From a virus (Duplodnaviria > Caudoviricetes), in the IMG/VR virus record IMGVR_UViG_3300018481_000005, positions 1 to 61,795 of that record: DNA of 61,795 nt; one strand, given 5' to 3'. The position numbers and the translations under genes are program-made. Positions 479 through 59,375 of the stretch are shown here, one piece after another. The first letter of the stretch is position 1. Every line of letters begins with the position of its first letter. The notes under the pieces were generated by a model, which ran no database searches, was not told where the DNA came from, and worked only from the letters and a program-made list of their open reading frames with translations.

Positions 479-723
479 GGGACCCAGACGCAACCGATGA
501 AGAGAAAGCGATGGACGAAGAGTTCGACGCCGCAGTAGCCAAAGCCTTCAAGGATGAAGGTCTGATGGTGACACAGTTCGCCATCGTGGTAGAGGTTGCT
601 GATGGTGATGGCGGTACTCACCTAGTCTTCCATGAGAGCGAGAGCATGTCACCGCACCTGCGTTCCGGCATGTTGCAATCCGCTCAGGTGGACTGGCCGA
701 ATGGAGATGAAGACGATGAATAA
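475..723 (+). CDS. Hypothetical acidic protein
   Basis: ATGA overlap with upstream stop, GAGAGGA RBS, 82 aa. Confidence 0.7.
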   Translation: MRDPDATDEEKAMDEEFDAAVAKAFKDEGLMVTQFAIVVEVADGDGGTHLVFHESESMSPHLRSGMLQSAQVDWPNGDEDDE

Positions 724-1552
724 GCCGTTGACAGCGGTGCTGGGATGCGGTCCGTCAGGTCTGCTCGCTGCACATGCTCTGGAGATGCGGAGCGTTCCGT
801 TCGTCATCCTGTCGAAGAAGCAGAAGTCTGTCCTCGGCGGTGCGCAGTACAGTCACATCCCGATCCCCGGCTATCACGACACGGATGACAGTGAAGTGAA
901 GCTGACGTACGAGGTGATCGGGTCGCCAGAGGTGTACAAGGAGAAGGTCTACGGAAACGCTCCTGTGCCGTTCGTAAGCATGACGCACAGGCGGGACGGG
1001 GAGATTGTGCCTGCCTGGTCCCTTACGTCGCTGTACGATCAGCTCTGGGACACGTACGTGGACCGTATCGTCGACGTGCCGCTGTCACCGGAGCGCGTGT
1101 GGCGCCTACTGGAAGGCTTCGACCTCGTGCTGTCCTCCGTGCCATTGACGAGGCTGTGCAAGGCGACCGTCGATCCCGACGTGCAGCACTGGTTCAAGTC
1201 ACAGCCCGTCCGCATCTACAACGAGGCGGTCGATCCGTCGCTTCCCGACAACACGATTCGATACGACGGGACGGAAGAGCACAGCTACTATCGGATGAGT
1301 CGCATCTTCGGTGTGGGCTCGACGGAGTGGGGCGGCACAGGTGCGGTCCCTCCGCTTCCTGACCTGATCAGTGTCAGCAAGCCGATCGGCACCAACTGCG
1401 ACTGCTTCGAGTCAAGCATCGAAGGTGATGACGTGCCGTATGGCCTCGTCAAGATCGGTCGCTTCGGTACATGGAAGAAGGGTCAACTCACGTTCCATGC
1501 GTACAACCGCGTCATCGATGTGTTGGCGCTGCGCTTCGGAGTCGGCGTATGA
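716..1552 (+). CDS. FAD/NAD-binding oxidoreductase, UDP-galactopyranose-mutase-like fold
   Basis: N-terminal AVLGCGPSGLLAA (GxGxxG) and C-terminal IGRFGTW flavin-binding motif; start MNKPL at 716 after GGAG. Confidence 0.8.
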   Translation: MNKPLTAVLGCGPSGLLAAHALEMRSVPFVILSKKQKSVLGGAQYSHIPIPGYHDTDDSEVKLTYEVIGSPEVYKEKVYGNAPVPFVSMTHRRDGEIVPAWSLTSLYDQLWDTYVDRIVDVPLSPERVWRLLEGFDLVLSSVPLTRLCKATVDPDVQHWFKSQPVRIYNEAVDPSLPDNTIRYDGTEEHSYYRMSRIFGVGSTEWGGTGAVPPLPDLISVSKPIGTNCDCFESSIEGDDVPYGLVKIGRFGTWKKGQLTFHAYNRVIDVLALRFGVGV

Positions 1553-2184
1553 TCTGCACAGAGTGCGGTCGTCATCTGAAGCCTGTCGTCGCCGTTGACA
1601 TCGACGGAACGCTCGGCAACTACCATGAGCACTTCACGGTCTTCGCGGAGATCTACCTGAACGAAGCACTGCCGCATGACTACGACGGTGGTCAGGAGTT
1701 CAGCGAGTATCTCGGTCTTGACAAGCGAGTCTATCGCGACATCAAGCTCGCGTATCGTCAGGGTGGCATGAAGCGATCGATGCCGATGTACGACGGAGCC
1801 GACAAGTTCATGCAGTGGATGCATGACGAAGGCATCGAGCTATGGATCGCGACGACGCGTCCTTGGCAACGGCTTGACAACGTTGATCCCGACACGAGAG
1901 AGTGGCTGCGTCGTTGCGGCATCCCATACGACTTCATGATCTACGGCGATGACAAGTACGATCAGCTCTACCTGCTCGTTGATCGCCATCGCATCCTGAC
2001 CGTCATCGACGACCAGCCGGAAGCGTGTCAACAGGCGGCGACACTTGGACTGAACGCTCGTCAGCCCATCCGTCCTCACAACGAGGGCGACAAGTACCTG
2101 CTTCGGTTCAAGTCGTTCAACGCGATGACGCAGGAGATCGGCTTCATGAAGCGAGACTGGGAGGAGAAGCATGGAGCGAGATGA
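1549..2184 (+). CDS. HAD-family phosphatase, 5'(3')-deoxyribonucleotidase-like
   Basis: Motif I VDIDGTL, motif II ATTR, motif IV IDD; ATGA overlap with previous gene. Confidence 0.85.
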   Translation: MICTECGRHLKPVVAVDIDGTLGNYHEHFTVFAEIYLNEALPHDYDGGQEFSEYLGLDKRVYRDIKLAYRQGGMKRSMPMYDGADKFMQWMHDEGIELWIATTRPWQRLDNVDPDTREWLRRCGIPYDFMIYGDDKYDQLYLLVDRHRILTVIDDQPEACQQAATLGLNARQPIRPHNEGDKYLLRFKSFNAMTQEIGFMKRDWEEKHGAR

Positions 2185-2653
2185 GTACTTGGATGAGCTA
2201 GGTGCGTTCAGTCGGTCGATCACTGACACGTGTCCCGACAGTCTGTTCGTCACCGTCATCGCACGTCACTGGCTGCAAGACGTAGCACCTGCACGCGCCA
2301 GGGACTACGGCATGGAGTTCTGGCAGCGGTTCGGCGCGGTCGGTGTCTTCTACCAGTTGCTCAACTGCTGGTATCGTTGGCGTCACACGATGACGAAGCG
2401 TGACACCATCGTTGACACGTTCGGATACGCGGTGCTGTTCGCCTTGTCGCTCGAGCAGCATGCGTCCGACATCAACTGGCGGTCCGTGTGGTTGCCTGCG
2501 ACACAGCCGGAGATCGTTGAGTGGCAGGAGTACATGATCATGGAGGTCCTCGACGTCGGCATGCAGTACGAACCGCAACCGTCGCACGCTTGGATCGCTC
2601 TGCGCATCGCATACGCGCAGTGGATGCACGCGAAGGAGTTGGCATGGACGTAG
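2171..2653 (+). CDS. Nmad1/DUF1599-like all-alpha (MazG-fold) nucleotide-modification-associated protein, divergent
   Basis: RDYG...FGAVG...RW...RDTIVDTFGYAVL resembles the DYG...G...RL...DTLxDLxxYA pattern of this family. Confidence 0.55.
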   Translation: MERDEYLDELGAFSRSITDTCPDSLFVTVIARHWLQDVAPARARDYGMEFWQRFGAVGVFYQLLNCWYRWRHTMTKRDTIVDTFGYAVLFALSLEQHASDINWRSVWLPATQPEIVEWQEYMIMEVLDVGMQYEPQPSHAWIALRIAYAQWMHAKELAWT

Positions 2654-3327
2654 TCAAGACATGGGTCATGGGCGGTTCACCGAACAGCATCGGAGCAGCG
2701 ATCGCGGAGGCGGTCGTCAGTGAAGGTGTTGATCACCTTGTCTTCGCGACGACGAAGGAAGAGCTCGACTGCCGCAACTGGTCGGACATGGCAGACTGGG
2801 TGAAGGAGTACGGTCCGTTCGATCGGGCTGTGTTCGCCGCAGGTGTTAGTCATCTGTCGTACATCGATCTTGAAGAGCAGGACATGGTCCGTGACGTGTT
2901 CAACGTCAACGTCAACGGCTTCATCGGCATGCTGCAAGCGTTGACCAGCGTTCAGGACTACGGCAACATCCTCGCCATAGTGTCCGACGCGTCACGTACA
3001 CCGATGCGCACGTCGTGGGCCTACTGCGCGAGCAAGGCGGCTCTCGAGATGGCTGTGCGGTGCGCAGCGCGTGAGCTAGCACCGTGGCGCATCAACGGTC
3101 TGTCACCAAGCACGGTTGAAGGCACCGACATGACACGCCACAACGACTTCGTCATCCCGCTGAAACGAGGATGGTCCCCGAGGGAAGCGAGGCAGTACGA
3201 GATGTCGATGGTCCCCATGAAGCGTCGTGTGACGCGGGAGGAGGTTGCACAAGCAGCGATCGACATCCTGAACGGACCGGAGTTCATGTCGGGCAACATC
3301 ACGTTCCTCACAGGAGGGAAGTCATGA
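2644..3327 (+). CDS. Short-chain dehydrogenase/reductase (SDR)
   Basis: MGGSPNSIG cofactor loop, AAG motif, catalytic Ser (IVSD) and YCASK (YxxxK). Confidence 0.9.
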   Translation: MDVVKTWVMGGSPNSIGAAIAEAVVSEGVDHLVFATTKEELDCRNWSDMADWVKEYGPFDRAVFAAGVSHLSYIDLEEQDMVRDVFNVNVNGFIGMLQALTSVQDYGNILAIVSDASRTPMRTSWAYCASKAALEMAVRCAARELAPWRINGLSPSTVEGTDMTRHNDFVIPLKRGWSPREARQYEMSMVPMKRRVTREEVAQAAIDILNGPEFMSGNITFLTGGKS

Positions 3328-3809
3328 TCGAGCAGTTGAAAGCGCATCAGGTGGCGATGTACGTGGAGAACGTGTTCTCCGCTGTTGACTCGATGGTCTC
3401 GCTCGGGTTCGACGAATGGATGTGGGACGAGGCGTTGCTCGTCGGCGAAGTGTACGGACGTCCGATGGAGACGAAGGCGACCATGGCGTTCAACTACCAG
3501 TTCGGTCCGAACGAGCTTGAGTTCCTGCGGTACTGGGGTCCGTCATGGCACACCGACGCAGGTCGCACCAGTGAAGCAGGTACACCGACGCATCCGTTCC
3601 TGTCACACCTGTCTATCAAGTGCGAGGACCTGGATGACGCAGCGCATGACATGAACCTTGAGCGCTTCGACGTCGTGCAGTGGTTCAAGACGCAGGATCA
3701 CAAGAACCCGCTGCTCCTCGAGCGGAAGCAGTCGTTCAACGAACGGGTCTACGGAACGCGGCACCTGTTCGGTTTCGACATCAAGCTGATCACGAGGGTA
3801 ATCGGATGA
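3324..3809 (+). CDS. VOC/glyoxalase-fold protein (methylmalonyl-CoA-epimerase-like)
   Basis: HQVAMYV...ELEFL...SHLSI pattern of paired VOC beta-alpha-beta units; GGAGGG RBS and ATGA overlap. Confidence 0.7.
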   Translation: MIEQLKAHQVAMYVENVFSAVDSMVSLGFDEWMWDEALLVGEVYGRPMETKATMAFNYQFGPNELEFLRYWGPSWHTDAGRTSEAGTPTHPFLSHLSIKCEDLDDAAHDMNLERFDVVQWFKTQDHKNPLLLERKQSFNERVYGTRHLFGFDIKLITRVIG

Positions 3810-4021
3810 CACTCAAGATCGGGAAGGCAGTCATCTGGTACTGCACCATCGACGAACGCGGATGCGGCTTCTTCGGTTTCTACAAGCCGGAGTCAACGAT
3901 CACGCGACGGAAGTGTCCAGCTTGCGGTTTGTTCAGTCCGTACCGCATGATTGAGGGCGAGCTTGCAGAGTTCAGCATCACGGAAGCTCCCACGGTGTCA
4001 CAGGAGGGAGGTCACGAGTGA
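3806..4021 (+). CDS. Small Cys-containing (zinc-ribbon-like) protein
   Basis: C-x6-C...CPAC; overlaps both neighbours by 4 nt. Confidence 0.55.
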   Translation: MTLKIGKAVIWYCTIDERGCGFFGFYKPESTITRRKCPACGLFSPYRMIEGELAEFSITEAPTVSQEGGHE

Positions 4022-7000
4022 AGTTCGTATCGCTGCACCACCATTCGACGTACAGCTTCTTGGATGGATACGGTCATCCGTCGGAACACGTGCAGCGAGC
4101 GGTCGATCTTGACATGCGCGCTCTCGCCCTGACGGAGCATGGGAACGTGAGCAGCCATCCGAAGCTTGAGCGAGCCGCGACGGAAGCGGGGATCAAGCCC
4201 ATCTTCGGATGCGAGTTGTACTGCGGTGCGCCAGGGATGCAGCGGAAGAACCACCTGTCGGTCTGGGCGCAAGATGAGGAGGGATATCGCAACCTGCTTC
4301 GGATGCTCACCATCGCATGGACGAAGGAGGAAGACGGTGGCGGGTTCTACTACCAACCGACGGTACATGGGAACGTTCTGTCAGATCATAGTGACGGACT
4401 CATTGTCGCTTCCGGCTGCACAGGCAGTCTTCTCGCTACTAGCCTCATCGGAGGGAAGAACATCGAGCCTGAGGATGCGTCGTACGATCGTGGTCTTCGT
4501 GTCGCCTCTCGGTTCAGGTCTCTGCTTGGTGACAGGTATTATCTCGAGACACAAGCCTTTCCAGAACTCACCGACGCAACGTGCAAGATCAATCCGCTTC
4601 TGGCACGCATCAGTCGGAAGCTGAAGATCCCTCTCGTCGCGACACAGGACGTCCACTACTGCATGCCTGATCACAACGAGATGCAGGTGATCCTCCATGC
4701 TGTGCGACCCGGACAGAACCTGTCGTACGAGGAGCAAGCACGTTCATGGGGATACGATGTGCTGCTCTGCCATCCGCAGTCTGACGCGGAGGTTGTCAAG
4801 AAGCTTGTCGGCACAGGTCTGACACCTGCACAGGCGCAGGAGGCTGTGGAGAACACAGGCGTCATAGCGGATCGCACAGCGCTCACACTGCCGAAAGCGG
4901 CACCGCTGCACTTCCCGCTCCCGCGAGGCGTAGCGACCACTAGGATCCTGTGGATGGACCTCCTGCGTGAGGGCTGGCGGTACAGGCGCATCAGCGACAA
5001 GGAACGTGTCGACGAGTACGCAGCACGGCTCAAGTACGAAGTGGAGATGATCGAGTCGAAAGACTTCATCGACTACTTCCTGATCGTGTCAGACATGGTG
5101 CGATGGGCGAAGGATCACGGCATCTTCGTCGGACCTGCACGGGGAAGCGCAGCCGGAAGCCTCGTGTGCTACCTGCTCCGCATCACGGAGGTCGACCCGA
5201 TGCTGTTCCGCGACCTGATCTTCGAACGCTTCATCGACACGACGCGCATGGACCTACCTGATATCGATCTTGACTACGACGACAGGCGACGACACGAGGT
5301 CTTCGAGTACCTGTCCGACAAGTACGGTCACGAGTATGTCTCCATGCTCGGAACGTTCGGGACGTACAAGCCGAAGCTCGCGCTTGACGATGTCGCACGT
5401 GTGTTCCGCGTGCCGCAATGGGAAGTCAACAGCGTCAAGGACCTGCTCCTGGAGCGGTCGTCCGGTGACCTGCGTGCATCCGCAGGCATCGAGGACACCG
5501 TCGCAACGTTCGACGAGGCGAAGAAGGTGTTCGACGAGCATCCCGATCTGTACAAGTCCATGAAGCTTGAAGGCATGGTGAAGGGGATGGGTCGTCACGC
5601 GGCAGGAGTGCTCGTGTCATCAACGCCGCTGACGGAGACGTGCGCGGTGTATGGCGAGACGGTTAGCATCGACAAGCATGACGCGGAGTATCTGAACCTC
5701 TTGAAGATCGACAATCTCGGTCTGAGCAACTGCGGGATGCTTGACGAAGCGGCACAGCTACTCGGAGCCGACATCAACCTGTTCTACGAGCTACCACTTG
5801 ACGACCCTGCGACGCTGCAAGGTTTCAAGGACGATGACCTGACAGGCATCTTTCAGTTCGACGGACGTGCGATGCGCATCGTGAATCGCAACCTGAAGCC
5901 CGACAACTTCTACGAGGTCTGCACCGTCAACGCTCTCGCACGTCCGGGACCGCTTCACAACAACTCCATGATCCACTACGTCGAAGTCAAGCATGGTGAG
6001 CGACAGCCCGAAGCGGTGCATCCGTTGTTCGATGACATCGTCAAGGACACGCAGTGGCAGGTCGTGTATCAGGAGCAGATCCTGCGCATCGTCCGTGAGA
6101 TCGGCAACTTCGACTGGACTGCGGCTGCATCCATCCGCAAGATCATGTCGAAGAAGCAGGGAGAGCAAGCGTTCAACCGCGAGTGGGAGCGCTTCTGGAA
6201 AGGTGCGAAGGAGAACGGGTTCACGGAGGACCAAGCGAAGAACATCTGGGGACTGTGCATCACGGCAGGAGCGTACGCCTTCAACGCTGCACACTCCGTC
6301 AGCTATGGCATGCTCGGATGGTGGACGATGTGGTTGAAGCAGCACCATCCCCTGGTCTTCTACGTGTCCGCCTTGCGACGCCTGCCTGACAACACGAGCA
6401 GCGGTAGCAAGGCGTCCAAGCATCACATGCTGATGCGTGACGCGGCTCGGCACGGCATCAAGGTGCAGCCGCCTGACATCGAACGAAGCGAGGTGACGTG
6501 GACGTCGGTCGGTGACGACACGTTGCTCGCAGGCTTCGAGCAGATCCCTGGCGTCGGTAGTGTGATGGCGCAGAAGATCGTTGACTACCGTGATGACGTC
6601 GGATTGCAAGAGTGGGAAGATCTCATCAACGTCAAGGGCATCGGGAACAAGACCATCGCGAAGTACCTGGAGTGGGTGTACGCCGAAGATCCGCTGCAGA
6701 TCTACACGCTTGACCGTCAGCTCGAGAAGATCAAGAAGGAGATCGAGAAAGGCAAGCTGCGCGGCAGGAACGGCACGCTTCCGACACCGACGCACACCGT
6801 CGAAACGTTCCCTGACGGCAAGGGCAAGGACATCAGCATCGTGTGGATGGGAAGCATCGTCAACCGAAACCTCCGCGATCTCTACGAGGTGAACTTCAGC
6901 CGCACAGGTGTAGAGCTTGATCCTGAGACGGTGAAGGACCCGAACTTGCGTGAGTGGGTGCTGCTACACGGCACCGACGGCGACGACATCCTGACGATCA

Positions 7001-7146
7001 CGATCGATCGTTGGAAGTACCCGCGATTCAAGGAGGTGGTGTGGAGACTGAATCTCGCCAAGGACATCGTGTTGATACGCGGTGTCAAGAAGGGACACAT
7101 GGCTCAGAAACAGCTTTACGTGTCGGAGATGTGGGTCCTCGAATGA
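4018..7146 (+). CDS. dnaE: DNA polymerase III alpha subunit (family C)
   Basis: PHP motif HHHSTYSFLDG and LTEHG, GPARGSAAGS, catalytic PDIDLD, GRHAAG, GIFQF, YQEQI, YAFNAAHS; 1042 aa, no intein seen. Confidence 0.97.
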   Translation: MKFVSLHHHSTYSFLDGYGHPSEHVQRAVDLDMRALALTEHGNVSSHPKLERAATEAGIKPIFGCELYCGAPGMQRKNHLSVWAQDEEGYRNLLRMLTIAWTKEEDGGGFYYQPTVHGNVLSDHSDGLIVASGCTGSLLATSLIGGKNIEPEDASYDRGLRVASRFRSLLGDRYYLETQAFPELTDATCKINPLLARISRKLKIPLVATQDVHYCMPDHNEMQVILHAVRPGQNLSYEEQARSWGYDVLLCHPQSDAEVVKKLVGTGLTPAQAQEAVENTGVIADRTALTLPKAAPLHFPLPRGVATTRILWMDLLREGWRYRRISDKERVDEYAARLKYEVEMIESKDFIDYFLIVSDMVRWAKDHGIFVGPARGSAAGSLVCYLLRITEVDPMLFRDLIFERFIDTTRMDLPDIDLDYDDRRRHEVFEYLSDKYGHEYVSMLGTFGTYKPKLALDDVARVFRVPQWEVNSVKDLLLERSSGDLRASAGIEDTVATFDEAKKVFDEHPDLYKSMKLEGMVKGMGRHAAGVLVSSTPLTETCAVYGETVSIDKHDAEYLNLLKIDNLGLSNCGMLDEAAQLLGADINLFYELPLDDPATLQGFKDDDLTGIFQFDGRAMRIVNRNLKPDNFYEVCTVNALARPGPLHNNSMIHYVEVKHGERQPEAVHPLFDDIVKDTQWQVVYQEQILRIVREIGNFDWTAAASIRKIMSKKQGEQAFNREWERFWKGAKENGFTEDQAKNIWGLCITAGAYAFNAAHSVSYGMLGWWTMWLKQHHPLVFYVSALRRLPDNTSSGSKASKHHMLMRDAARHGIKVQPPDIERSEVTWTSVGDDTLLAGFEQIPGVGSVMAQKIVDYRDDVGLQEWEDLINVKGIGNKTIAKYLEWVYAEDPLQIYTLDRQLEKIKKEIEKGKLRGRNGTLPTPTHTVETFPDGKGKDISIVWMGSIVNRNLRDLYEVNFSRTGVELDPETVKDPNLREWVLLHGTDGDDILTITIDRWKYPRFKEVVWRLNLAKDIVLIRGVKKGHMAQKQLYVSEMWVLE

Positions 7147-12393: not shown

Positions 12394-12716
12394 ACACCTG
12401 TCCGAACCCGCGTTGCACCATGGAACACAAGTACGAACGCACCGAGATAGAGACGTACGGATGCATGTCATGGTGGCATCAGTTCCTCGAGCTCCCCAAC
12501 ATCTGGCCGGAGAAGGTGCTGCGTCCTGTCAGCGCACAGCCCGACGGCATGGGTCAGCTCGCAGGTGAGATGGAGCCGATGGTCGGCGTTGACGTCGGCG
12601 GGATGAAGCACGTTGACTCGGTTCGCTCCGGTCCGCCTCCGACACGTGCAAGGCGTGCGGAGAAGACCACCGTCATGCCGCCGAACCCTGTGCAGGTGTG
12701 GCTTGACACGGACTGA
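12390..12716 (+). CDS. Hypothetical protein
   Basis: GTGA overlap; N-terminal Cys pair. Confidence 0.5.
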   Translation: MNTCPNPRCTMEHKYERTEIETYGCMSWWHQFLELPNIWPEKVLRPVSAQPDGMGQLAGEMEPMVGVDVGGMKHVDSVRSGPPPTRARRAEKTTVMPPNPVQVWLDTD

Positions 12717-12919
12717 TGAAGCGCAGCGTGAAGCCGAACGTGTCATCAGTCGTGACGCACTGCTCGCGACGGGATGGCAGCTTGAAACGTGTGGCACGTG
12801 CGGAAGCATGGTCATCCTCGGTCACAAGGTGTGGACGCTTGCCTGTGCAGGCGTGCCGCAGTGCAGTTGGACGTGTCTCGCGAAGGCGAGCATGGGATCT
12901 TCGTTATGAAAGGGGAGAC

Positions 12920-13180
12920 GTGCCAGGGAAGCCCGGACCGCACAGTGATCGGAAGCCGTTGTTCGTGGAGTTCGCTCCATGTCAGCGTCAACCCGATCTG
13001 TTCTATGCGAAGGACAAGGATCTCGTCCAGCGGGCGAAAGAGATCTGTCACACCTGTCCGGCGATGATTCGTTGTCGGACACACGCCATGCGTCAACGTG
13101 AACCATATGGCGTTTGGGGTGGGATGTCAGAACGTGATCGTCACCGTGTATGGCGCAGATTGCGTCGGCGCGTAGCGTAA
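12920..13180 (+). CDS. whiB: WhiB-family Fe-S transcription factor
   Basis: Four Cys (C...CHTC...C) and YGVWGGMSERDR motif; GTG start after AAAGGGGAG. Confidence 0.92.
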   Translation: MPGKPGPHSDRKPLFVEFAPCQRQPDLFYAKDKDLVQRAKEICHTCPAMIRCRTHAMRQREPYGVWGGMSERDRHRVWRRLRRRVA

Positions 13181-49577: not shown

Positions 49578-49697
49578 CAGGGACCGCAACAGGGTATGGG
49601 CGCAGCCGCCTATGCCGTGCCTGCACCACACCCGAACGTAGGTGCAGGGAGCAGCACGTTCCACACCGCATCAGATCAAGGACCAAGGAGGAACACC

Positions 49698-51587: not shown

Positions 51588-51616
51588 TCAATATGGTTAC
51601 AAAGGAGAGTCACGAC

Positions 51617-52039
51617 ATGAAGAAGCTACTCATCACCGCAGCGATCATCACCGCAACGCTCGCCGTCGGATGCTCAACGCCGACGGACACGACGAACGCT
51701 GCACCGGAGACAGGGAACGTCGGCGGCAACGTCCCGAACACCGAGAGCGTTGACTCCGAGCAGGAGGAGCTCGCTACTTGGTGGTTGACGAACGAAGACA
51801 AGTGGTACGAGATGACTGACCGCTTCGCAGCCGTTGATCTGGAAGGTGCTGTCGATGTGATGAACAGCATGGACCCGATCCCGAATGCTTCGCTGAACAA
51901 TCTGTTCATCCGGTATCAAGCGGAGATCAACGAAGCGCTCATCCGACTCAACGCGGGCGACATCGCTGGTGCCACTGCCAACATCAAGGCTGGCACGGCT
52001 ATCATGCGAGACATCACCGCTGAGATCGGCTCGCTGTAA
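51617..52039 (+). CDS. Lipoprotein
   Basis: MKKLLITAAIITATLAVG-C lipobox. Confidence 0.75.
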   Translation: MKKLLITAAIITATLAVGCSTPTDTTNAAPETGNVGGNVPNTESVDSEQEELATWWLTNEDKWYEMTDRFAAVDLEGAVDVMNSMDPIPNASLNNLFIRYQAEINEALIRLNAGDIAGATANIKAGTAIMRDITAEIGSL

Positions 52040-52065
52040 CGGCTGAACAGGAAGGGAGTCACATC

Positions 52066-52317
52066 ATGACGGCTGAATTCGTTCGCGTCGTTCCGATGAC
52101 AGGGAGCAAGGTGCATCTGACCGAGGAGGCACCGAAGCAGCACAGCCGCACGGCACGCAACGTTCCGTCGCTGTGCGGCATGGTGCTGAAGACGGTGTAC
52201 ATGCCGACGCTCCGTGAAGTGCGCGACATGGAGGTGACGGACTGTCAGAAGTGCTTGAAGGTCCGCGCCAACCGTGACGAGCACTCCCTCTCCTACTACC
52301 GAAAGGAGGATGAGTGA
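52066..52317 (+). CDS. Hypothetical Cys/His protein
   Basis: KVH...LCG...CQKC; RBS plus AGTCAC. Confidence 0.7.
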   Translation: MTAEFVRVVPMTGSKVHLTEEAPKQHSRTARNVPSLCGMVLKTVYMPTLREVRDMEVTDCQKCLKVRANRDEHSLSYYRKEDE

Positions 52318-52472
52318 TGCCTGACGTGCAACTGTGCGAGTGGTTCGCTATGTGCGCGAACCCTGCGGACGGCATGATGCCGCATCCGATCCTCGGTGGT
52401 GTGCCGTGCTGTGAAAGGTGCGCAGCCGTTGTCGGTGCAGAGTCGGAGCTAGTGAAAGGAACGTTCGAGTGA
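52317..52472 (+). CDS. Small Cys-rich protein (absent from ORF track)
   Basis: CEWFAMCANPA...HPILG.VPCCERC; AAAGGAGG RBS. Confidence 0.65.
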   Translation: MPDVQLCEWFAMCANPADGMMPHPILGGVPCCERCAAVVGAESELVKGTFE

Positions 52473-52717
52473 CGAAGCGTCACATTGAAGTCCTCATGCT
52501 CAAAGCGTTGGGCTTGTCCAGCCGTCAGGTCGGGCAGATCCTATGGCTGTCTGAGAAGACGGTCAAGGCGCATCTGCAGTACCTGTCGGCACGACTCGAC
52601 GCACGCAACACCACGCACGCTGTCACCATCGCACTGACACGTAACCACTTCACCCTTGCGGACCTTCAGGTCCTTGAGGAAGAGATCAGCGAGCGACTCC
52701 GAGAGGAGGCATCATGA
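52469..52717 (+). CDS. LuxR/GerE-type HTH regulator
   Basis: TKRHIEVL...GLSSRQVG..LWLSEKTVKAHL......L.ARNTTHAV. Confidence 0.85.
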   Translation: MTKRHIEVLMLKALGLSSRQVGQILWLSEKTVKAHLQYLSARLDARNTTHAVTIALTRNHFTLADLQVLEEEISERLREEAS

Positions 52718-52875
52718 ACAAGATCGTCATCTACATCAACGAGGACGATGCGGTCGTGTCGGTCGCACTGAACGGAGTGTTCGTCAGTCCGGCAGACTGG
52801 GACGCGGTGTACGAAGGAGGCAAGGAGTACTCGGATGCGCAGGCATCACCCTTCTGGCCGGGACCCGCATCATGA
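52714..52875 (+). CDS. Hypothetical protein (absent from ORF track)
   Basis: GAGAGGAGG RBS; ATGA overlaps at both ends. Confidence 0.6.
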   Translation: MNKIVIYINEDDAVVSVALNGVFVSPADWDAVYEGGKEYSDAQASPFWPGPAS

Positions 52876-53243
52876 GCACACTGAAGAAGGGCGACGTCGT
52901 AGTGCTGCGCGATGGCCGTCGTGCAGAGGTTGACGCCATGGCCGAACGGAGTACGGAGTACGTTTGGCTGTGGGTTGGGAACGCACGAGTGTTCACCAGC
53001 CTCCGCGTCAGCGAACTGAAGGACGTGGTCTTCCGCAAGGGGATCACGCCGGAGATCGCTCACAATCACGCGGTCAACGAGGAACGCTTCCACGCGCATC
53101 CCGGCGGTGCAGCACCGCACTGGCATCGGTCAGTCCGTGATGCAGCGAACGTCAGCGGATACCGCGTCCGAGACATCGAAGAAGGTGATGCTCACTGGGG
53201 AGACGAGGACGTGACGACACGACGTCCGGTGCATGGCGTGTGA
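52872..53243 (+). CDS. Hypothetical protein
   Basis: LKKGDVVVL KOW-like start; His-rich middle. Confidence 0.6.
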   Translation: MSTLKKGDVVVLRDGRRAEVDAMAERSTEYVWLWVGNARVFTSLRVSELKDVVFRKGITPEIAHNHAVNEERFHAHPGGAAPHWHRSVRDAANVSGYRVRDIEEGDAHWGDEDVTTRRPVHGV

Positions 53244-53266
53244 CGTGTCTATGCGAAGCCCGCGCA

Positions 53267-53414
53267 CGTGTGTACGGGTTCAACGGCTAGGGTGGACTAG
53301 GGACTAAGACGGACAGCGTCAGTCCCTTCCTACCCTTCCGTTCTGTGCGTCGTCCTGTGAGGACTACAATCAGCAGCGGATCGTAGCCGTTGAACCCGTA
53401 CAGCCGCGTACGCG
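53267..53414. repeat. Inverted-repeat element, copy 2 (candidate replication origin or structured RNA)
   Basis: Perfect 19-bp IR TGTACGGGTTCAACGGCTA 53271-53289 / TAGCCGTTGAACCCGTACA 53384-53402; CGCGTACGCG at 53405-53414. Confidence 0.85.
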
Positions 53415-53434
53415 AGGGAAACGAAGGAGGCAGT

Positions 53435-53776
53435 ATGGGCAAGAAGAAGGAAGTCAAGGCGCTGATCAAGCAGATCGTCGCGTCGTTCGAACTACTGATG
53501 GACCTCGATCCGGAAGCAGCACTTGACGCGATGGACGCTGCACACACCCGAGTCGGTGAAGACCCGCGCATGGTGCCAGTCATCATCAAGCGCGTGAAGG
53601 AGGAAGCCGACAAGCAGGTGCAGGAGATGCACGAGCGGATGCAGAACGCTGGTGTCACGGTGCTTGAGATGTCAGCGGAGGAGGCTGCCAAGTTCATCGA
53701 GGAGCACGCGATCAAGGAAGAGTCGATGCTTGACGCCGACATCAAGGGTCTGCTGCGCGAGAACAAGGAGAACTGA
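53435..53776 (+). CDS. Hypothetical helical protein
   Basis: GAAGGAGG RBS. Confidence 0.7.
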   Translation: MGKKKEVKALIKQIVASFELLMDLDPEAALDAMDAAHTRVGEDPRMVPVIIKRVKEEADKQVQEMHERMQNAGVTVLEMSAEEAAKFIEEHAIKEESMLDADIKGLLRENKEN

Positions 53777-53777
53777 C

Positions 53778-54464
53778 ATGAAGAGAAGCTACTGGGTCAT
53801 CATCGCGGCAGTCGTAGTCGCGATCGTGACGATCGGCTTCCTGATCGGTGCCAACATGCCGACCGATGGAGGAAGCGGGAGCAAGGACGTCCCTGTCGAA
53901 ACGAACAGCGGAGTGGTCATCGACGGAGACAGTCAGACCGTCGGACTCGCGTCGAGCTTCGTGCCGGATGAGCGCGTGCGATGCAACGATGGTTGCAAGA
54001 AGCGACGCAGCAAGGTTGACCCGCCTGTGCATGCTCGATCACATCCTGCACCGCTCGCTCGGACAGCACGTGTCAGCGAACTCCTTCGCGGAGGCAAGCG
54101 ATGCAAGGCGAAGGAAGTCGAAGTCTGGGCGAACAACGCGGCAGGCGGATGGATGTGGACGTTCAACTACAAGCGCACCGTCTGTTGGCGTCCTGGCACC
54201 GACAACTTCGTCTACAATCATGTCGACACGTGGACGGAGATCGGCAATGACATCTGGAACATCTGGAAGGATGGCGGTAGCAACGGTGACGCGTCGTCTC
54301 AAGGACAGCATCCGTCAGGTGTCAAGTGGTGGGCGATCACCAAGACACGAACGTTCGACATGTGCTTGACGTTCTGCTACGCCGACTGGCACGTCAGCGG
54401 TACACAGAACTTCGACACGTCCGGCGGATACGAGTGGTCCAAGACCGGACAGCCCGGAAGCTGA
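53778..54464 (+). CDS. Membrane-anchored exported protein
   Basis: N-terminal TM helix; Trp/Cys-rich beta domain. Confidence 0.7.
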   Translation: MKRSYWVIIAAVVVAIVTIGFLIGANMPTDGGSGSKDVPVETNSGVVIDGDSQTVGLASSFVPDERVRCNDGCKKRRSKVDPPVHARSHPAPLARTARVSELLRGGKRCKAKEVEVWANNAAGGWMWTFNYKRTVCWRPGTDNFVYNHVDTWTEIGNDIWNIWKDGGSNGDASSQGQHPSGVKWWAITKTRTFDMCLTFCYADWHVSGTQNFDTSGGYEWSKTGQPGS

Positions 54465-54493
54465 CACACTGCACCTGACGCAGCGGGAGGGAG

Positions 54494-54703
54494 GTGAACC
54501 ACTTGGACACACCGGAGTATGGCATCAGCACCTACACGGAAGAGGAAGCTGATCAACCGACCGACGTCTTCAAGATCATGCAGCAAGAAGAGAAAGGACA
54601 GCCGTTCGTCACCGTGGAATACGTCGCGTCGTTCGTTGACGAGGCAACCGCGATCAACTTCTGTGACGTGTGGCGCGGCAAGGCACTGGAAGGAGAAGCT
54701 TGA
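54494..54703 (+). CDS. Hypothetical protein
   Basis: GGGAGGGAG RBS. Confidence 0.6.
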   Translation: MNHLDTPEYGISTYTEEEADQPTDVFKIMQQEEKGQPFVTVEYVASFVDEATAINFCDVWRGKALEGEA

Positions 54704-54918
54704 AGATCATCATCCCCTCGACAGAGCTAGACGCCGTCGACATCGTTGACGGTAGTTTGGTCATCGACTTCAACCGAGCAGCGGAAGCGGCGATGTCACT
54801 CCGTCGCACCGCACGTCGGCTGGAAGCCGGTGAAGACATGACAAGGACCATCGCAGCCGCAACGCCTGAACAGCTTGCGGAAGCGATCGATCACTGCGTC
54901 ACTGACGGAGACAGCTAG
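54700..54918 (+). CDS. Hypothetical protein
   Basis: TTGA overlap; GAAGGAG RBS. Confidence 0.55.
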   Translation: MKIIIPSTELDAVDIVDGSLVIDFNRAAEAAMSLRRTARRLEAGEDMTRTIAAATPEQLAEAIDHCVTDGDS

Positions 54919-55039
54919 CTCCGTCTGACGCGGTAAGATAGGACCGCACGGACGGGTCAGTTGACGACCTGGTCGATGACCGAGCGCTGGGCTCTGTGAC
55001 TGCCTGATCTCGGGCTGATCCGTCCGTGCGTCCTTCCCA

Positions 55040-55069
55040 TTGACGTGACACGCAGTAGGGATGCACACT
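55040..55069 (+). promoter_or_regulatory. Possible SigA-like promoter for the replication operon
   Basis: TTGACG-N18-CACACT upstream of the thyX-like gene. Confidence 0.4.
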
Positions 55070-55181
55070 GACAGACAGAGGAGTACGGTGTGCAGTCCGC
55101 AGTCAGGCAACGTCACACCAACATCAAGAAGGTTCCGTCCGGTAGCTCCGACTCGGCATCGGAGCAGAGGGGAGATGCAAC

Positions 55182-56027
55182 ATGACAGAGACCAGCGGTC
55201 CTGTTCCGATCCGTCTGTTGGACGACAAGCCGTTCAACAAACACAGCATGAACGTCAACAATCAGACGTCACCGTTCGACAACGGCAATGTCGACGTCGG
55301 CGTCGACAACATCACTGTCAAGCTCGTGCAGGGCATCGATGAGGATGCGCTGCGTATCACTCTCGGCCGTAGCGTTCTCGCTACGATCGGCGTGGACCCC
55401 AACGTTCCGCCGGAGAAGCTCCCTTGGGAAGAGATGTTCAAGGGAGGGCTTCAGACGGCACTTGAGTCACAGGTCTTGGTCTTCGAAGTCGCGGGAGTCT
55501 CGCGCACCTGTACTCATCAGTTGGTCCGGTCCCGTCGTGCCGCATTCCATCAGCAGTCGCAACGTGCAAGCTTCATGGGGAACCGACCTGACACGCGCCT
55601 ACCCATGTCCGTCTTTCGCAACACCAGAGCGCATGCAGCCGCGATGGAAGCGATCGCCGCTGCACATCACGCCTACGAGATCGCATGCGAAGAGGACATC
55701 GCCTTCCAGGATGCGCGGTTCATCCTGCCGGAGGGGACGGAGACGTACATCCTCTGTGAGTACCCGATCCGTGAGTTCCTCAACGTCTACGCCTATCGCG
55801 CGTGCAGCATGTTTCAGTGGGAGATCATGACGGTGATGCGTCTGATGAAGCAGGAGCTCGTCGCCGCGCATCCGTGGATCGAGAAGTACGTCAAGATCAC
55901 GTGCGAGAAGACGAAGGTCTGCGAGTTCCAGGGATGGGAACGTGTCGAGGGACACTGCGAACTGCCTTGGGCCAAGGAGGACAACCGACGGTATCAACCT
56001 GATCCGTCGCTGCGGATCGGCGGGTGA
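55182..56027 (+). CDS. thyX: Flavin-dependent thymidylate synthase (ThyX) family, divergent
   Basis: GVSRTCTHQLVRSRRAAFHQQSQR, QDARFILP, QWEI; several canonical residues replaced. Confidence 0.85.
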   Translation: MTETSGPVPIRLLDDKPFNKHSMNVNNQTSPFDNGNVDVGVDNITVKLVQGIDEDALRITLGRSVLATIGVDPNVPPEKLPWEEMFKGGLQTALESQVLVFEVAGVSRTCTHQLVRSRRAAFHQQSQRASFMGNRPDTRLPMSVFRNTRAHAAAMEAIAAAHHAYEIACEEDIAFQDARFILPEGTETYILCEYPIREFLNVYAYRACSMFQWEIMTVMRLMKQELVAAHPWIEKYVKITCEKTKVCEFQGWERVEGHCELPWAKEDNRRYQPDPSLRIGG

Positions 56028-56287
56028 CCGCCATGCAATCCGACGTTCCGATCTCGTTCGAGTCCGACGAGACCCTGCGCAAGCCGCAGACATGCGCAGC
56101 CGCGTGGTGTCAGAAGCGCATACAGGCGGGTCGCCGTGTGGTCGCCTTGACAACGCTGACGCGGGCTGACGGCAGTACACCGCAGAAGGGCGACGACCTC
56201 CTAGAGCTCAAGAACGTTCTGACGTTCTGGCACACCGACTGTCGAGAGCGTCAGCTCCGAAAGGAGAAGCGTCATGCCAAAGCGTGA
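56024..56287 (+). CDS. Small zinc-binding protein
   Basis: CAAAWC...WHTDC; GTGA overlap. Confidence 0.6.
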   Translation: MTAMQSDVPISFESDETLRKPQTCAAAWCQKRIQAGRRVVALTTLTRADGSTPQKGDDLLELKNVLTFWHTDCRERQLRKEKRHAKA

Positions 56288-57308
56288 AGAGCTCGTGCTG
56301 CTTCGCACGTCGGAGCGCGGCGTGTGGGGTCAGTGTCATCAGCAATGGGCATGGCGGTTCATCGACAACCTGCAACCGCGCACGTCGTCACCACCTCTGG
56401 AGTTCGGCACGCTGTGGCACAAGGCGATGGCCGACTACTACATCCCAGGGAAGAAGCGCGGTCCGCATCCCGCCAAGTCGTTCAAGCTGTACTTCGACAG
56501 CGATGTCGCGAGCAAGTTCCGTCTCCGCAACAGTGACGCGGAGTGGGACGACGCGCTTGAGCTAGGCGTCGCGATGGCTGAGAACTACGTCGACGAGTTC
56601 GGTCGTGACAGCAAGATCGAGATCATCGCACCGGAGATGCCGTTCGCGTACCGCATGACGGACGTCGGAGGACAACCGTTCTGGGTCGTCGGTCGCTTCG
56701 ACGCGCTGTTCCGCTGGCTCACGACGCATGAGTACGGCATCCTGGAACACAAGACCGCAGCGTCGATCAGCACCGCGCACCTACAGATGGACGAACAGGC
56801 AGGCACGTACTTCATGTTCGGACGTCTCTGGGTGAAGGAACTGCAACGACGACTGATCATCCCGAAGGGCAATCGTCTTGAGCTTGACATGGTGCTGTAC
56901 AACTTCGCTCGGAAGGCGAAGCCTGACCCGCGTCCTCGTGACGACGCAGGCATCTATCTGAACAAGGACGGGACGCAGAGCAAGACGCAGCCGCCTCCCT
57001 ACTTCGCTCGTGTGCCTGTGTACCGTGACGAGGAGGACAGCAAGCGTTTGGTCAAGCGCATCCGACAGCAAGCATGGATGATGCGTCAGCAGCGCGAAGG
57101 CAAGCTTCCGATCATCAAGACACCGTCGTCCGGATACCCTGACCGTCACTGTGAGGCATGTCCGTTCAAGGCGATGTGTGAGTTGCACGAGACTGGTGGT
57201 GACTGGCGGTCGTACGCCAAGATGAACTACGACGTCGCCGACAACTATCAGGAGTACAAGGAAGACCTCGAAGAGGACATCATCACCATCGGAGGGAGGT
57301 GGAACTAA
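56274..57308 (+). CDS. Cas4/RecB-like PD-(D/E)xK exonuclease
   Basis: C..QW, FGTLWH, GRFD, EHKTA, C..CPF...C. Confidence 0.88.
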   Translation: MPKREELVLLRTSERGVWGQCHQQWAWRFIDNLQPRTSSPPLEFGTLWHKAMADYYIPGKKRGPHPAKSFKLYFDSDVASKFRLRNSDAEWDDALELGVAMAENYVDEFGRDSKIEIIAPEMPFAYRMTDVGGQPFWVVGRFDALFRWLTTHEYGILEHKTAASISTAHLQMDEQAGTYFMFGRLWVKELQRRLIIPKGNRLELDMVLYNFARKAKPDPRPRDDAGIYLNKDGTQSKTQPPPYFARVPVYRDEEDSKRLVKRIRQQAWMMRQQREGKLPIIKTPSSGYPDRHCEACPFKAMCELHETGGDWRSYAKMNYDVADNYQEYKEDLEEDIITIGGRWN

Positions 57309-58129
57309 TGGCAGCACCACCGATCCACAAGCTTGGTGAGCGACCGACGCATTCACGCATCTGCGTCTACAGCGCACCTGGGCTCGGGAAGACTGCGCTT
57401 GCATGTAGCAGTCCGAACGTTCTCATCCTCAACGCCGACGGTCCTGACGGACCAGAGGCTGCAAGAGCGCTGGGATACAATCCGAGCATCTGGGACATCG
57501 ACGGAGAGAACCCGTTCGAAGAGCTTGACAACGCCTACAAGTACATCCGTCGGTATCCCGACAAGTACGAGTGGGTCTGGCTTGACAGCGCGACACTCTT
57601 CCAAGACAAGTCGATGGACGAGATCATGGAGGACGTACACAAGGCGAAGCCGCACAGGTCGATCTACTTGCCGGACAAGCCTGAGTATCAACTCAACCAG
57701 AACCAGTTGTCCAAGTGGATCCGTCACATGACAGCGCTCCCGATCAACTTCGGGTTCACTGCGCATGAGGCGCGATTCGAGGACGACGACGGCGAGACCG
57801 TGTACCTTCCGATGATCCAGGGAGGACAGGGAGCACTATCGTCGAAGCTGTGCGCATGGATGGGCATCGTCGGTCGGCTCACGGTTGAGACGACACGTGT
57901 CCGAGAGGAGGGAAGCAAGCGACGAGAGACAACGTCGGAGCGACGTCTACAGGTGCAGTGGACAGGCAAGCACTACGCGAAGGACCGGCTCAGTGGTGGC
58001 AGGTTGGGCGAGTACGTGTCCGACCCCACCATCCCTAAGATCATGGAGGGCATCAACGCTCCAGCAGCCCGGAAGCCTAAGCGGCGTCCCGTACGGAAGA
58101 GCACAGCGACCAGCAGGAGGACACGTTGA
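57308..58129 (+). CDS. AAA_24/Sak4-like RecA-fold ATPase
   Basis: YSAPGLGKT, WLDSAT, TAHE, AKDR. Confidence 0.85.
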   Translation: MAAPPIHKLGERPTHSRICVYSAPGLGKTALACSSPNVLILNADGPDGPEAARALGYNPSIWDIDGENPFEELDNAYKYIRRYPDKYEWVWLDSATLFQDKSMDEIMEDVHKAKPHRSIYLPDKPEYQLNQNQLSKWIRHMTALPINFGFTAHEARFEDDDGETVYLPMIQGGQGALSSKLCAWMGIVGRLTVETTRVREEGSKRRETTSERRLQVQWTGKHYAKDRLSGGRLGEYVSDPTIPKIMEGINAPAARKPKRRPVRKSTATSRRTR

Positions 58130-59133
58130 CCAAGATCAAAGCAGACGTAAGCGGTTCCGACCCGGACAAGGCACTATCGGTCGGCAACCGGAAGTCTCCT
58201 CGTCCAGGCATGTACGTGGCGGAGATCGACACCGTCAAGTATCGCGAGGAGAAGGCAGACCTGGAAGTCACGTACAAGATCACGCAAGCCGACAAGGAGA
58301 AGAACGAGCAGTTCGTCGGCAGTCGGCTCTGGTCGTACGTCATGCTCGAGGACCATCCCTCATGGGAGCAGACGCAGTGGAAGCTCGACCAGTTGCTGCA
58401 AGCGGTCGGACTCGCCACGAAGAAGAAGCGGAAGGTCAACTTCGACACCGACGAACTCGAAGGCGAAGAGGTCGTGATCATCGTCGTGTCGGACACGAAC
58501 AAGGAAGGCGACTATCGCGGTGCTGTCGGTGGCGTCATGATGTACGACGAGGAAACGTTCGGCCAGGACGTCGAGGACGATGACGACGAAGAGGACGAGC
58601 CGGAGCCGGACGCGTACAGCGATGACGATGACGACGACGAGGACGAAGCTTCCGACGACGAGGAAGCACTGCCGTACGACGAGTGGTCTCTCGCCGAACT
58701 GAAGGCAGAGCTCGAAGCACGCGACATGGACGCGATCAAAGGCAAGGCGAAGATCATCGCAGCGCTCGAAGAGGATGACGAGTCCGAAGAGGGCGATGAC
58801 GATGACGAGGAAGAAGCCGAGCCGGAAGCAGGTGAGTACGACGACCTGTCCGTCGCCGATCTCCGCAAGGAGTGCGTGGAACGAGGGCTGAAGAAGAACG
58901 GCACCAAGGACGCACTGATCGCACGTCTCGAGGAGTTCGACGCGAACCCGCCGGAGGATGAGCCGGAAGCAGACGACGATGACGATGACGAGGAAGAAGA
59001 GGAAGCTCCGAAGCCGCGTCGACGCAAGCCTGCAACGGCGACCAAGAGCAAGAAGACCGTCGCCAAGCGTTCGTCGTCGAAGTCAACTCGCAGGAAGGGA
59101 AGCAAGGATGACGGCTTCCCGTTCGACGAGTAA
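58126..59133 (+). CDS. SSB-like (DUF669-type OB fold) protein with two SAP-like motifs and acidic linkers
   Basis: PRPGMYVAEI N-terminus; YDEWSLAELKAELEAR and YDDLSVADLRKECVERGLKKNGTKDALIARL; C-terminal FPFDE. Confidence 0.75.
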   Translation: MTKIKADVSGSDPDKALSVGNRKSPRPGMYVAEIDTVKYREEKADLEVTYKITQADKEKNEQFVGSRLWSYVMLEDHPSWEQTQWKLDQLLQAVGLATKKKRKVNFDTDELEGEEVVIIVVSDTNKEGDYRGAVGGVMMYDEETFGQDVEDDDDEEDEPEPDAYSDDDDDDEDEASDDEEALPYDEWSLAELKAELEARDMDAIKGKAKIIAALEEDDESEEGDDDDEEEAEPEAGEYDDLSVADLRKECVERGLKKNGTKDALIARLEEFDANPPEDEPEADDDDDDEEEEEAPKPRRRKPATATKSKKTVAKRSSSKSTRRKGSKDDGFPFDE

Positions 59134-59371
59134 CGCTGACGCCGACGACTTGGTGACAGGTAACTTCGGTGTCGCATGCTATCTGTGGTTCTCGGGCTTC
59201 GTCGTGAACATGGAATGGGAGCATGACGTGTGCTTCTTCCGCTTCACGCGCAGTCCGGAACTACAGACAGCGTCGTCCGCGTATCACAAGGGACGAGCGA
59301 CAGTAGACCCTCGGAAGTTCTGGCCGAAGGTCGCGGAGTTCAAGTCCATGGTCTACGCGAGCAAGCCATAG
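59108..59371 (+). CDS. Hypothetical protein (DUF5659-like)
   Basis: T.NFGVACYL...FFRF...VDPRKF; fills the gap before the primase. Confidence 0.6.
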   Translation: MTASRSTSNADADDLVTGNFGVACYLWFSGFVVNMEWEHDVCFFRFTRSPELQTASSAYHKGRATVDPRKFWPKVAEFKSMVYASKP

Positions 59372-59375
59372 CCAG

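Follow-up and report, generated by a model that had tools for sequence, protein, structure and literature searches.

A ThyX-like phage protein with replaced folate-side residues and its linkage to a predicted second flavoprotein

The window analysed here, the whole 61,795-bp record IMGVR_UViG_3300018481_000005, is a complete viral record with direct terminal repeats, and it encodes a divergent relative of ThyX, the flavin-dependent thymidylate synthase (FDTS; EC 2.1.1.148). In this ThyX-like protein everything known to hold and polarise deoxyuridine monophosphate (dUMP) appears from alignment to be kept, while residues on the folate side of the flavin are replaced by others that are themselves nearly invariant in a large clade. 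The gene is also linked, across actinophages, to one for a putative oxidoreductase with a Rossmann fold for flavin adenine dinucleotide (FAD) or nicotinamide adenine dinucleotide (phosphate) (NAD(P)). Our favoured prediction for the ThyX-like protein, at slightly less than an even chance, is a rewired dUMP enzyme that acts at C5 in a two-flavoprotein system and may form a product other than deoxythymidine monophosphate (dTMP).

55182..56027, + strand: ThyX-like gene, open reading frame (ORF) with an ATG start, 281 aa

The protein matches Pfam Thy1 (PF02511) at 93.8 bits (gathering score 24.8) over residues 85-232, corresponding to profile positions 45-191 only, and its first ~85 residues lie outside this match. 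It also matches phrog_35637, a PHROG of 'thymidylate synthases', at 3e-99. An AlphaFold2 model built from 146 sequences has a mean predicted local distance difference test (pLDDT) score of 96.5; compared with the PDB by Foldseek, it finds its best matches in the ThyX enzymes of Thermotoga maritima and Mycobacterium tuberculosis (7ndz_C, E 1.4e-11, TMt 0.75), and only ThyX stands among the top matches listed. The modelled protein is thus of the ThyX fold. Its score against the NCBIfam thyX equivalog TIGR02170, however, is 79.3 bits, under the cut-off of 87.9, whereas the canonical ThyX of mycobacteriophage Phlorence (GHES, RHR, SQRY) reaches 175.6 bits as a control.

Active-site residues and their conservation

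Residues were compared through HMMER alignments to solved ThyX chains, with T. maritima numbering fixed by 4gtf_A (T. maritima H53A, tag offset 12). The relevant segments of the window protein are as follows.

aa 88-96, 55443..55469, + strand: GGLQTALES, with L90 at the T. maritima H53 position and S96 at the H59 position
aa 116-129, 55527..55568, + strand: RSR-x7-S-x-R-A motif, RSRRAAFHQQSQRA, with S117, H123, Q124 and A129 replacing H79, N85, E86 and Y91
aa 178-185, 55713..55736, + strand: ARFILPEG, with R179 equivalent to R147; just upstream, Q176 is at the E144 position
aa 205-215, 55794..55826, + strand: YRACSMFQWEI, with R206 equivalent to R174 and M210 at the H178 position

The changed positions (T. 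maritima/window) are H53/L90, H59/S96, H79/S117, N85/H123, E86/Q124, Y91/A129, E144/Q176 and H178/M210, and the retained ones are G52/G89, E58/E95, Q75/Q113, R78/R116, R80/R118, S88/S126, R90/R128, R147/R179, R165/R197, N169/N201, R174/R206, Q180/Q212 and E182/E214. Instead of the ThyX signature RHR-x7-S the protein has RSR-x7-S, with both Arg and the Ser in place and the His gone, and the folate/flavin-stacking His H53 and its partner Tyr Y91 are both absent, their positions being occupied by L90 and A129. The residues that bind or activate dUMP (R78, R80, S88, R90, R147 and R174) are all matched in the alignment. A preliminary description of this DNA had proposed three substitutions (G-H to G-L, RHR to RSR and SxRY to SQRA) alongside retained Arg/Ser residues, ARxxLP and R...QWEI; the alignment to solved chains bears out the substitutions and places the retained motifs where they were said to be, and the changes at H59, N85, E86, E144 and H178 go beyond it. 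The set that includes H53 and Y91 is reportedly known as the 'extended ThyX motif'.

The replaced residues have defined roles in canonical enzymes. According to the available text of PMC11940539, H53 of T. maritima ThyX pi-stacks the folate pteridine in the oxidised ternary complex, in agreement with what the preliminary description said of it, and the isoalloxazine once the enzyme is reduced; Y91 and N85 hold it through hydrogen bonds, and mutation of Y91 cuts the flavin oxidation rate ~1000-fold. In the available part of PMC8316439, S88 and Y91 are described as 'strictly conserved', with a proposed role as acids when the carbinolamine loses its hydroxyl, T. maritima ThyX Y91A is more than 100-fold slower, and R174 activates dUMP. 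For the ThyX paralogue PolB, the corresponding portion of PMC5003785 reports that Y99A nearly abolishes activity and that Y99F retains 80% on dUMP. In light of the published contacts among H53, Y91 and N85, the clade has lost the interacting pair H53 and Y91 and has altered the third member of the triad, N85, to an invariant His.

The substitutions are fixed across a large clade and do not reflect drift. Two large protein searches gathered 270 relatives, 139 of which are full-length and share G89, S/T117 and A129. In these clade members GGLQ, LE, THQ.VR.R.A.FHQQS.RA, YQDAR and YR.C are at least 95% conserved, as are L90 and A129 themselves, and the His at the N85 position (H123) is invariant; R179 and R206 do not vary in 146 aligned sequences. 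Where an R.R-x7/8-S.R. motif could be recognised (216 sequences), the H79 and Y91 positions hold Ser and Ala in 105, Thr and Ala in 35, and His and Tyr in 40. Relative to T. maritima TM0449 and M. tuberculosis ThyX, with which the window protein shares the fold, the Pfam domain and the nucleotide-binding residues Q75, R78, R80, S88, R90, R147 and R174, the phage clade differs in having Leu for H53, Ser for H59, Ser or Thr for H79, Ala for Y91 and His/Gln/Gln for N85/E86/E144, and in an obligate link to a second predicted flavoprotein. Because the substrate-side residues are selectively kept and the replacements themselves are at least 95% conserved, the active site seems to have been remodelled rather than to have decayed.

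A provisional FastTree of 136 rows gives good support to a group of 25 representatives that includes the window protein and has S/T and A at these positions in nearly every member. This group is nested in one of 40, all without H53, in which some members have Tyr or RHR, so the three changes are separable.

Some relatives of 578-610 aa (P0158, P0164) carry inteins with an HNH endonuclease, inserted after about residue 210-255, near the R..C..Q.E segment, and such insertions argue for a functional enzyme. They bear on the alternative that the protein is a non-catalytic or regulatory relic of ThyX, such as a protein that binds dUMP or flavin and has a tuning role in the nucleotide metabolism of the host. 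Such a relic could explain the absence of three residues that available mutagenesis reports mark as important, but about 50 positions, every substrate-binding Arg among them, are at least 95% conserved in the clade and the predicted fold is very confident; with R174 and R90 invariant and inteins present in relatives, we consider a relic very improbable. Domain fusions offered no hint of function, the long relatives holding only HNH inteins or unmatched N-terminal extensions.

Near its C terminus the protein has a Cys triad, C-x5-C-x11-C (C241, C247 and C259; 55902-55958), which is at least 95% conserved in the clade and also present in contigs L002, L036 and L038. A clade-specific metal or Fe-S site was considered and rejected as a distinguishing feature, since a similar C-x4-6-C-x6-45-C arrangement is found among representatives of both kinds, 22 of 32 with RHR and 34 of 53 without it. 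The triad is thus a feature of the family, possibly a metal site, rather than a mark of the clade. In gp46 of phage Lizz, two CxxCxGxG repeats are inserted within it.

Linkage to the oxidoreductase gene in actinophages

The ThyX-like gene lies within a replication module, with a SNF2 helicase gene (49596-51587) on its upstream side. Gene order (window 59376-61795 and 1-478) continues across the terminal repeat into a set of overlapping genes at 716-3809 and then DnaE, and in the related contig L015 the same order runs uninterrupted.

716..1552, + strand: FAD/NAD(P)-Rossmann oxidoreductase ('orf632'), 278 aa from an inner start; phrog_8720, function not given
1549..2184, + strand: HAD phosphatase of NT5C (5'-deoxynucleotidase) type; Pfam NT5C 30.8 bits, DIDGT motif; its start overlaps the preceding stop
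2171..2653, + strand: 160-aa ORF overlapping both neighbours; no Pfam or NCBIfam family match
2644..3327, + strand: short-chain dehydrogenase (SDR), FabG-like, with GGSPNSIG and YCASK motifs
3324..3809, + strand: weak VOC/glyoxalase-like ORF; Glyoxalase_4 18.8 bits, under the cut-off of 27; ATGA overlap with the SDR stop
4018..7146, + strand: DnaE-type DNA polymerase III alpha, the module anchor

We searched 34 loci, comprising 32 related viral contigs and two cultured phages, with the window proteins. Near the ThyX-like gene, homologues of DnaE occur in 32 loci, of the Rossmann protein in 25, of the NT5C/HAD phosphatase in 23, of the SDR in 10 and of the VOC protein in 5. All nine loci without the Rossmann protein (L003, L005, L014, L017, L020, L024, L026, L028 and L034) end before its expected place. 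Because of these counts, and because every miss lacks the upstream DNA, the Rossmann protein is to be seen as the constant partner and the SDR and VOC proteins as optional; the preliminary description, which made the enzyme the first step of a putative modification pathway and asked whether its clade tracks an SDR/VOC cassette, needs amending in this respect. The genes themselves are already known, being named in more than 100 deposited genomes; what is new here is that the oxidoreductase at 716-1552, and not the SDR/VOC pair, is the constant partner.

The same association is seen in cultured phages. Among 50,697 phage records, 126 contain homologues of the oxidoreductase (Gordonia 46, Microbacterium 36, Mycobacterium 32, Streptomyces 9, Arthrobacter 2 and Nocardia 1), annotated 'oxidoreductase' throughout, and this search found no holders outside actinophages. 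ThyX-like proteins of the window type are present in actinophage records of Streptomyces (9) and Mycobacterium (4), and a second type, represented by gp68 of phage Gumball, is present in 113 records (Gordonia 46, Microbacterium 36, Mycobacterium 28, Arthrobacter 2 and Nocardia 1). The sums of the two types equal the oxidoreductase totals genus for genus (126 versus 126), a match of counts and not of accession lists. In some Microbacterium phages the ThyX-like and oxidoreductase genes are adjacent, and all five annotated cultured phages that were opened (Onyinye, Lizz, Gumball, Ajin and Suzy) encode a ThyX-like protein within the module that also holds DnaE and the oxidoreductase; the available part of the Xenia2 table (PMC11385102) adds another phage with this combination. 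Phlorence, with its canonical ThyX, has no oxidoreductase homologue, unlike Onyinye and Gumball.

The Gumball type (Gumball, Ajin and Suzy) is very distant from the window type but occupies the same module. It too lacks all three residues, having RQR or RTR, S.RF and Leu at the H53 position, and Gumball gp68 scores 78.3 bits with TIGR02170, under the cut-off of 87.9. Onyinye carries a window-type ThyX-like gene beside a phosphatase 78% identical to that of Gumball, and for this reason the two types look interchangeable in one module. The FastTree separates them, with canonical ThyX in between, but in view of the great length of the Gumball branch (1.49) we do not rely on their independence.

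This module, with the same gene order, is found in SEA-PHAGES actinophages of clusters D, DV, EF and others (Gumball gp61-gp68; the Xenia2 table, in the part available), of which the window phage is an uncultured member. The annotations there give names only ('ThyX-like thymidylate synthase', 'oxidoreductase', 'phosphatase/nucleotidase'), and 'ThyX-like thymidylate synthase' is used for canonical (Phlorence) and non-canonical proteins alike. Full-text literature searches found no paper noting the missing catalytic residues, the sub-threshold equivalog score or the pairing of ThyX-like protein and oxidoreductase.

The partner protein itself has no Pfam or NCBIfam family match, and a profile of 70 homologues matches the PDB only at the GxGxxG beta-alpha-beta motif of flavoproteins. 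Its AlphaFold2 model (pLDDT 95.1) is most similar to UDP-galactopyranose mutase (UGM; Z 15.2, 268 of 278 residues aligned, 14% identity), followed at Z 12-13 by PhzS, protoporphyrinogen oxidase, TetX-type and PHBH-type monooxygenases and D-amino-acid oxidases. The model combines an N-terminal GxGxxG dinucleotide-binding fold with a substrate domain, as in the two-domain FAD enzymes of the GR2 or PHBH-UGM-PPO type, and the partner is thus by its modelled structure a compact two-domain FAD enzyme, with several kinds as candidates. A complex prediction for the ThyX-like and 716-1552 proteins scored 0.00, was run without controls and counts neither way. Residues invariant in the 70 homologues (278-aa numbering) are C148, C228 and C230, the last two in TNCDC, together with H158, R193, E204 and K222, and a metal or redox site may lie here.

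Alternatively, the ThyX-like protein could act on something other than free dUMP: deoxycytidine monophosphate (dCMP), uridine monophosphate (UMP), a nucleotide sugar or the uracil of a polynucleotide. UGM, the best structural match of the partner, is a nucleotide-sugar enzyme, a glycosyltransferase is encoded in the Ajin module, E86 has become Gln, and PolB, in the available text on it, shows that a shift of the ThyX fold to UMP is possible. The UGM match, however, stands only about 2 Z above many unrelated flavoenzymes, and R174, which polarises uracil, is invariant together with R90, S88 and R147, whereas a cytosine-specific enzyme would be expected to alter the R174 contact. With R174 and R90 invariant, we regard a changed substrate as improbable, although less so than a relic.

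Candidate reactions and their weighing

Under the reading we favour, the protein would be a working flavoenzyme of the ThyX fold, with a uracil nucleotide (most likely dUMP) still as its ligand and C5 of that nucleotide as the position it activates. The flavin face that serves stacking of folate and of reduced NAD phosphate (NADPH) in canonical ThyX would have been rebuilt through the exchange of H53 for Leu, Y91 for Ala, H79 for Ser and N85/E86/E144 for His/Gln/Gln. The ThyX-like protein would act as one half of a conserved pair, with the FAD-Rossmann protein encoded at 716-1552 as the other half, and the pair would belong to a replication-linked nucleotide module of actinophages that consists of the oxidoreductase, the NT5C-type phosphatase, optional SDR, VOC or methyltransferase genes, DnaE and the ThyX-like gene. 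The canonical reaction, with methylenetetrahydrofolate (CH2-THF) stacked by H53 and Y91 serving as an acid, would probably not be run, and the product would more likely be a differently made or differently substituted C5-dUMP than folate-derived dTMP. Candidate chemistries are oxygenation by the reduced flavin and a carbon-unit transfer in which the partner flavoprotein supplies or enables the unit, with the phosphatase trimming the competing nucleotide pool.

This module looks more like one for nucleotide modification than one for housekeeping dTMP supply, judging from the retention of the substrate side, the replacement of the folate/NADPH side by invariant residues, the strict flavoprotein pairing, the frequent deoxynucleotidase-type phosphatase and the variable tailoring genes (methyltransferase, SDR and VOC, and in Ajin a glycosyltransferase). 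A more specific and more novel version, in which the ThyX-like and 716-1552 proteins would form a folate-independent two-flavoprotein system adding a non-methyl group to C5 of dUMP (for instance an O2-derived hydroxyl, or a carbon unit larger than methyl), is rather unlikely.

There is a precedent for such a change of function in the other thymidylate synthase (TS) fold. Phage ThyA homologues have been neofunctionalised into dCMP or dUMP hydroxymethylases and 5-hydroxy-dCMP synthases, and pool-trimming phosphatases often accompany them, as in SPO1-type phages. According to the available part of PMC13326640, the flavin-binding ThyA homologues of RB69 and DLP3 make 5-hydroxy-dCMP. These enzymes are TS relatives of phages that make a non-canonical C5-pyrimidine nucleotide before replication, which for the window gene is a proposal, but they have the ThyA fold, which is unrelated to ThyX, and the literature searched yielded no ThyX-family counterpart. 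Within the ThyX fold, PolB/SVIThyX2, a polyoxin UMP/dUMP C5-methylase, likewise shows recruitment beyond housekeeping dTMP supply; according to the available portion of PMC5003785, it retains CH2-THF/NADPH chemistry and needs Y99, the equivalent of Y91, where the phage clade has Ala.

The strongest rival is that the protein is an ordinary but deeply divergent ThyX that converts dUMP to dTMP by means of CH2-THF or free formaldehyde. Residues such as H123 and F122 would then replace H53 and Y91, and the FAD protein would at most supply reducing equivalents; we hold this to be quite possible, if short of an even chance. It gains strength from the absence of any other TS gene, from the variability of Y91 and from the literature searched, in which these clusters are not credited with any odd base. 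The window phage and the five related cultured phages that were checked each have exactly one ThyX-family gene, as the sole TS-family gene, and no ThyA, as expected if the gene is a plain phage thymidylate synthase. It also sits in a replication module as canonical phage ThyX genes do, every dUMP-binding Arg and Ser is present, and the invariant His stands at the position of N85, which touches H53 in T. maritima (PMC11940539, in the available text). Free formaldehyde is usable by ThyX, according to the part of PMC8316439 available.

Several further points weigh against the reading we favour. Solved ThyX of Corynebacterium glutamicum (3ge9/3fnn) has SQRF, with Phe at the Y91 position, nine RHR-type sequences carry Ser, His or Arg there, and some members of the wider GGLQ group retain Tyr or RHR. 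The preliminary description would have been refuted had the same substitutions proved common in verified ThyX enzymes, which is not the case for H53 or RHR and is partly so for Y91, given the Phe of the C. glutamicum enzyme. T. maritima H53A, to judge from the title of entry 4gtf, crystallised with folate all the same. The roles given here to R165, N169, E144 and H79 are ones that we assume. The Y99F form of PolB retains nearly full activity (PMC5003785, available portion). The phosphatase at 1549-2184 is similar, too, to the phosphatase moiety of polynucleotide kinase (phrog_415), and for this reason it need not act on the nucleotide pool. Finally, we found no unusual bases reported for these SEA-PHAGES clusters in the literature searched, but this is weak evidence because perhaps nobody has looked.

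On the other side, Ala at the Y91 position, as distinct from Phe, leaves PolB almost inactive and makes T. maritima ThyX over 100-fold slower in the reports available, H53 has been lost in two distant lineages, and the score falls under the thyX equivalog cut-off. Plain thymidylate synthesis would also leave unexplained the strict link to a second flavoprotein and a nucleotidase, both of which Phlorence, with its canonical ThyX, does without.

ThyX is a drug target whose mechanism has been disputed for twenty years, and the clade offers a natural test of the roles of H53, Y91 and the RHR His. A product other than dTMP would mean that the neofunctionalisation known for phage thymidylate synthases of the ThyA fold extends to the ThyX fold, and modified DNA would then be predicted in well over a hundred phages that culture collections already have and that can be grown on laboratory strains. 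Addition of a non-methyl C5 group would imply that thymidine is replaced or hypermodified in at least 126 cultured actinophages (from clusters such as D, DV and EF, together with Onyinye and the Lizz-like Streptomyces phages) and in many soil phages. The protein would then be the first in the ThyX family that does not methylate, and would open a new route to modified DNA in phages. Should dTMP be the product after all, the strict flavoprotein pairing would define a two-component ThyX. Whatever the product, the shared label 'ThyX-like thymidylate synthase' covers two different things.

Neighbouring genes, host and further ThyX-like groups

Downstream of the ThyX-like gene the replication module continues to the end of the record.

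56274-57308: Cas4-type nuclease
57299-58129: AAA_24 ATPase
58126-59133: SAP-domain protein
59376 to the record end (61795): primase/MCM helicase, ORF reaching the record end

Among the optional genes, the VOC-like ORF is 27% identical to Ajin gp58. Gumball, Onyinye, Lizz and Suzy share a conserved hypothetical family located between the phosphatase or methyltransferase and DnaE (L036:14000-14491, L001:7369-7992, L002:5839-6882 and L038:12463-13068), with the invariant residues F, K, DY, G, K..KL, W and E...EI..DL..H. The window ORF at 2171-2653 matches this family weakly by hhalign (probability 46%). A MazG-like pyrophosphatase was suggested for this ORF by a motif impression in the possible relatives and was rejected, as Pfam gave no match and the window ORF is without the acidic motif.

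The window has a GC content of ~0.59 and encodes a WhiB-family transcription factor (12716-13180; Pfam 65.1 bits), which is typical of actinobacteriophages. This gene, together with nearest relatives in Mycobacterium and Streptomyces phages, points to an actinobacterial host for the uncultured window phage. A megablast of 16.8 kb of the window against phage records gave no match. Over window positions 50000-59999, 25-44% of sampled words were found in assembled soil, sediment and freshwater-sediment metagenome contigs from five different studies; the listed holders of this region are assembled soil/sediment metagenome contigs only, with neither an RNA dataset nor raw long reads among them. Close relatives of the window phage thus seem widespread in soil and sediment habitats.

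A further non-canonical ThyX group, with RTR ... SQRT and without GH..EH, is present in 26 Escherichia, 6 Xanthomonas and 10 Rhizobium phage records and in others (for example NC_048147.1, PQ850605.1 and MN988524.1).

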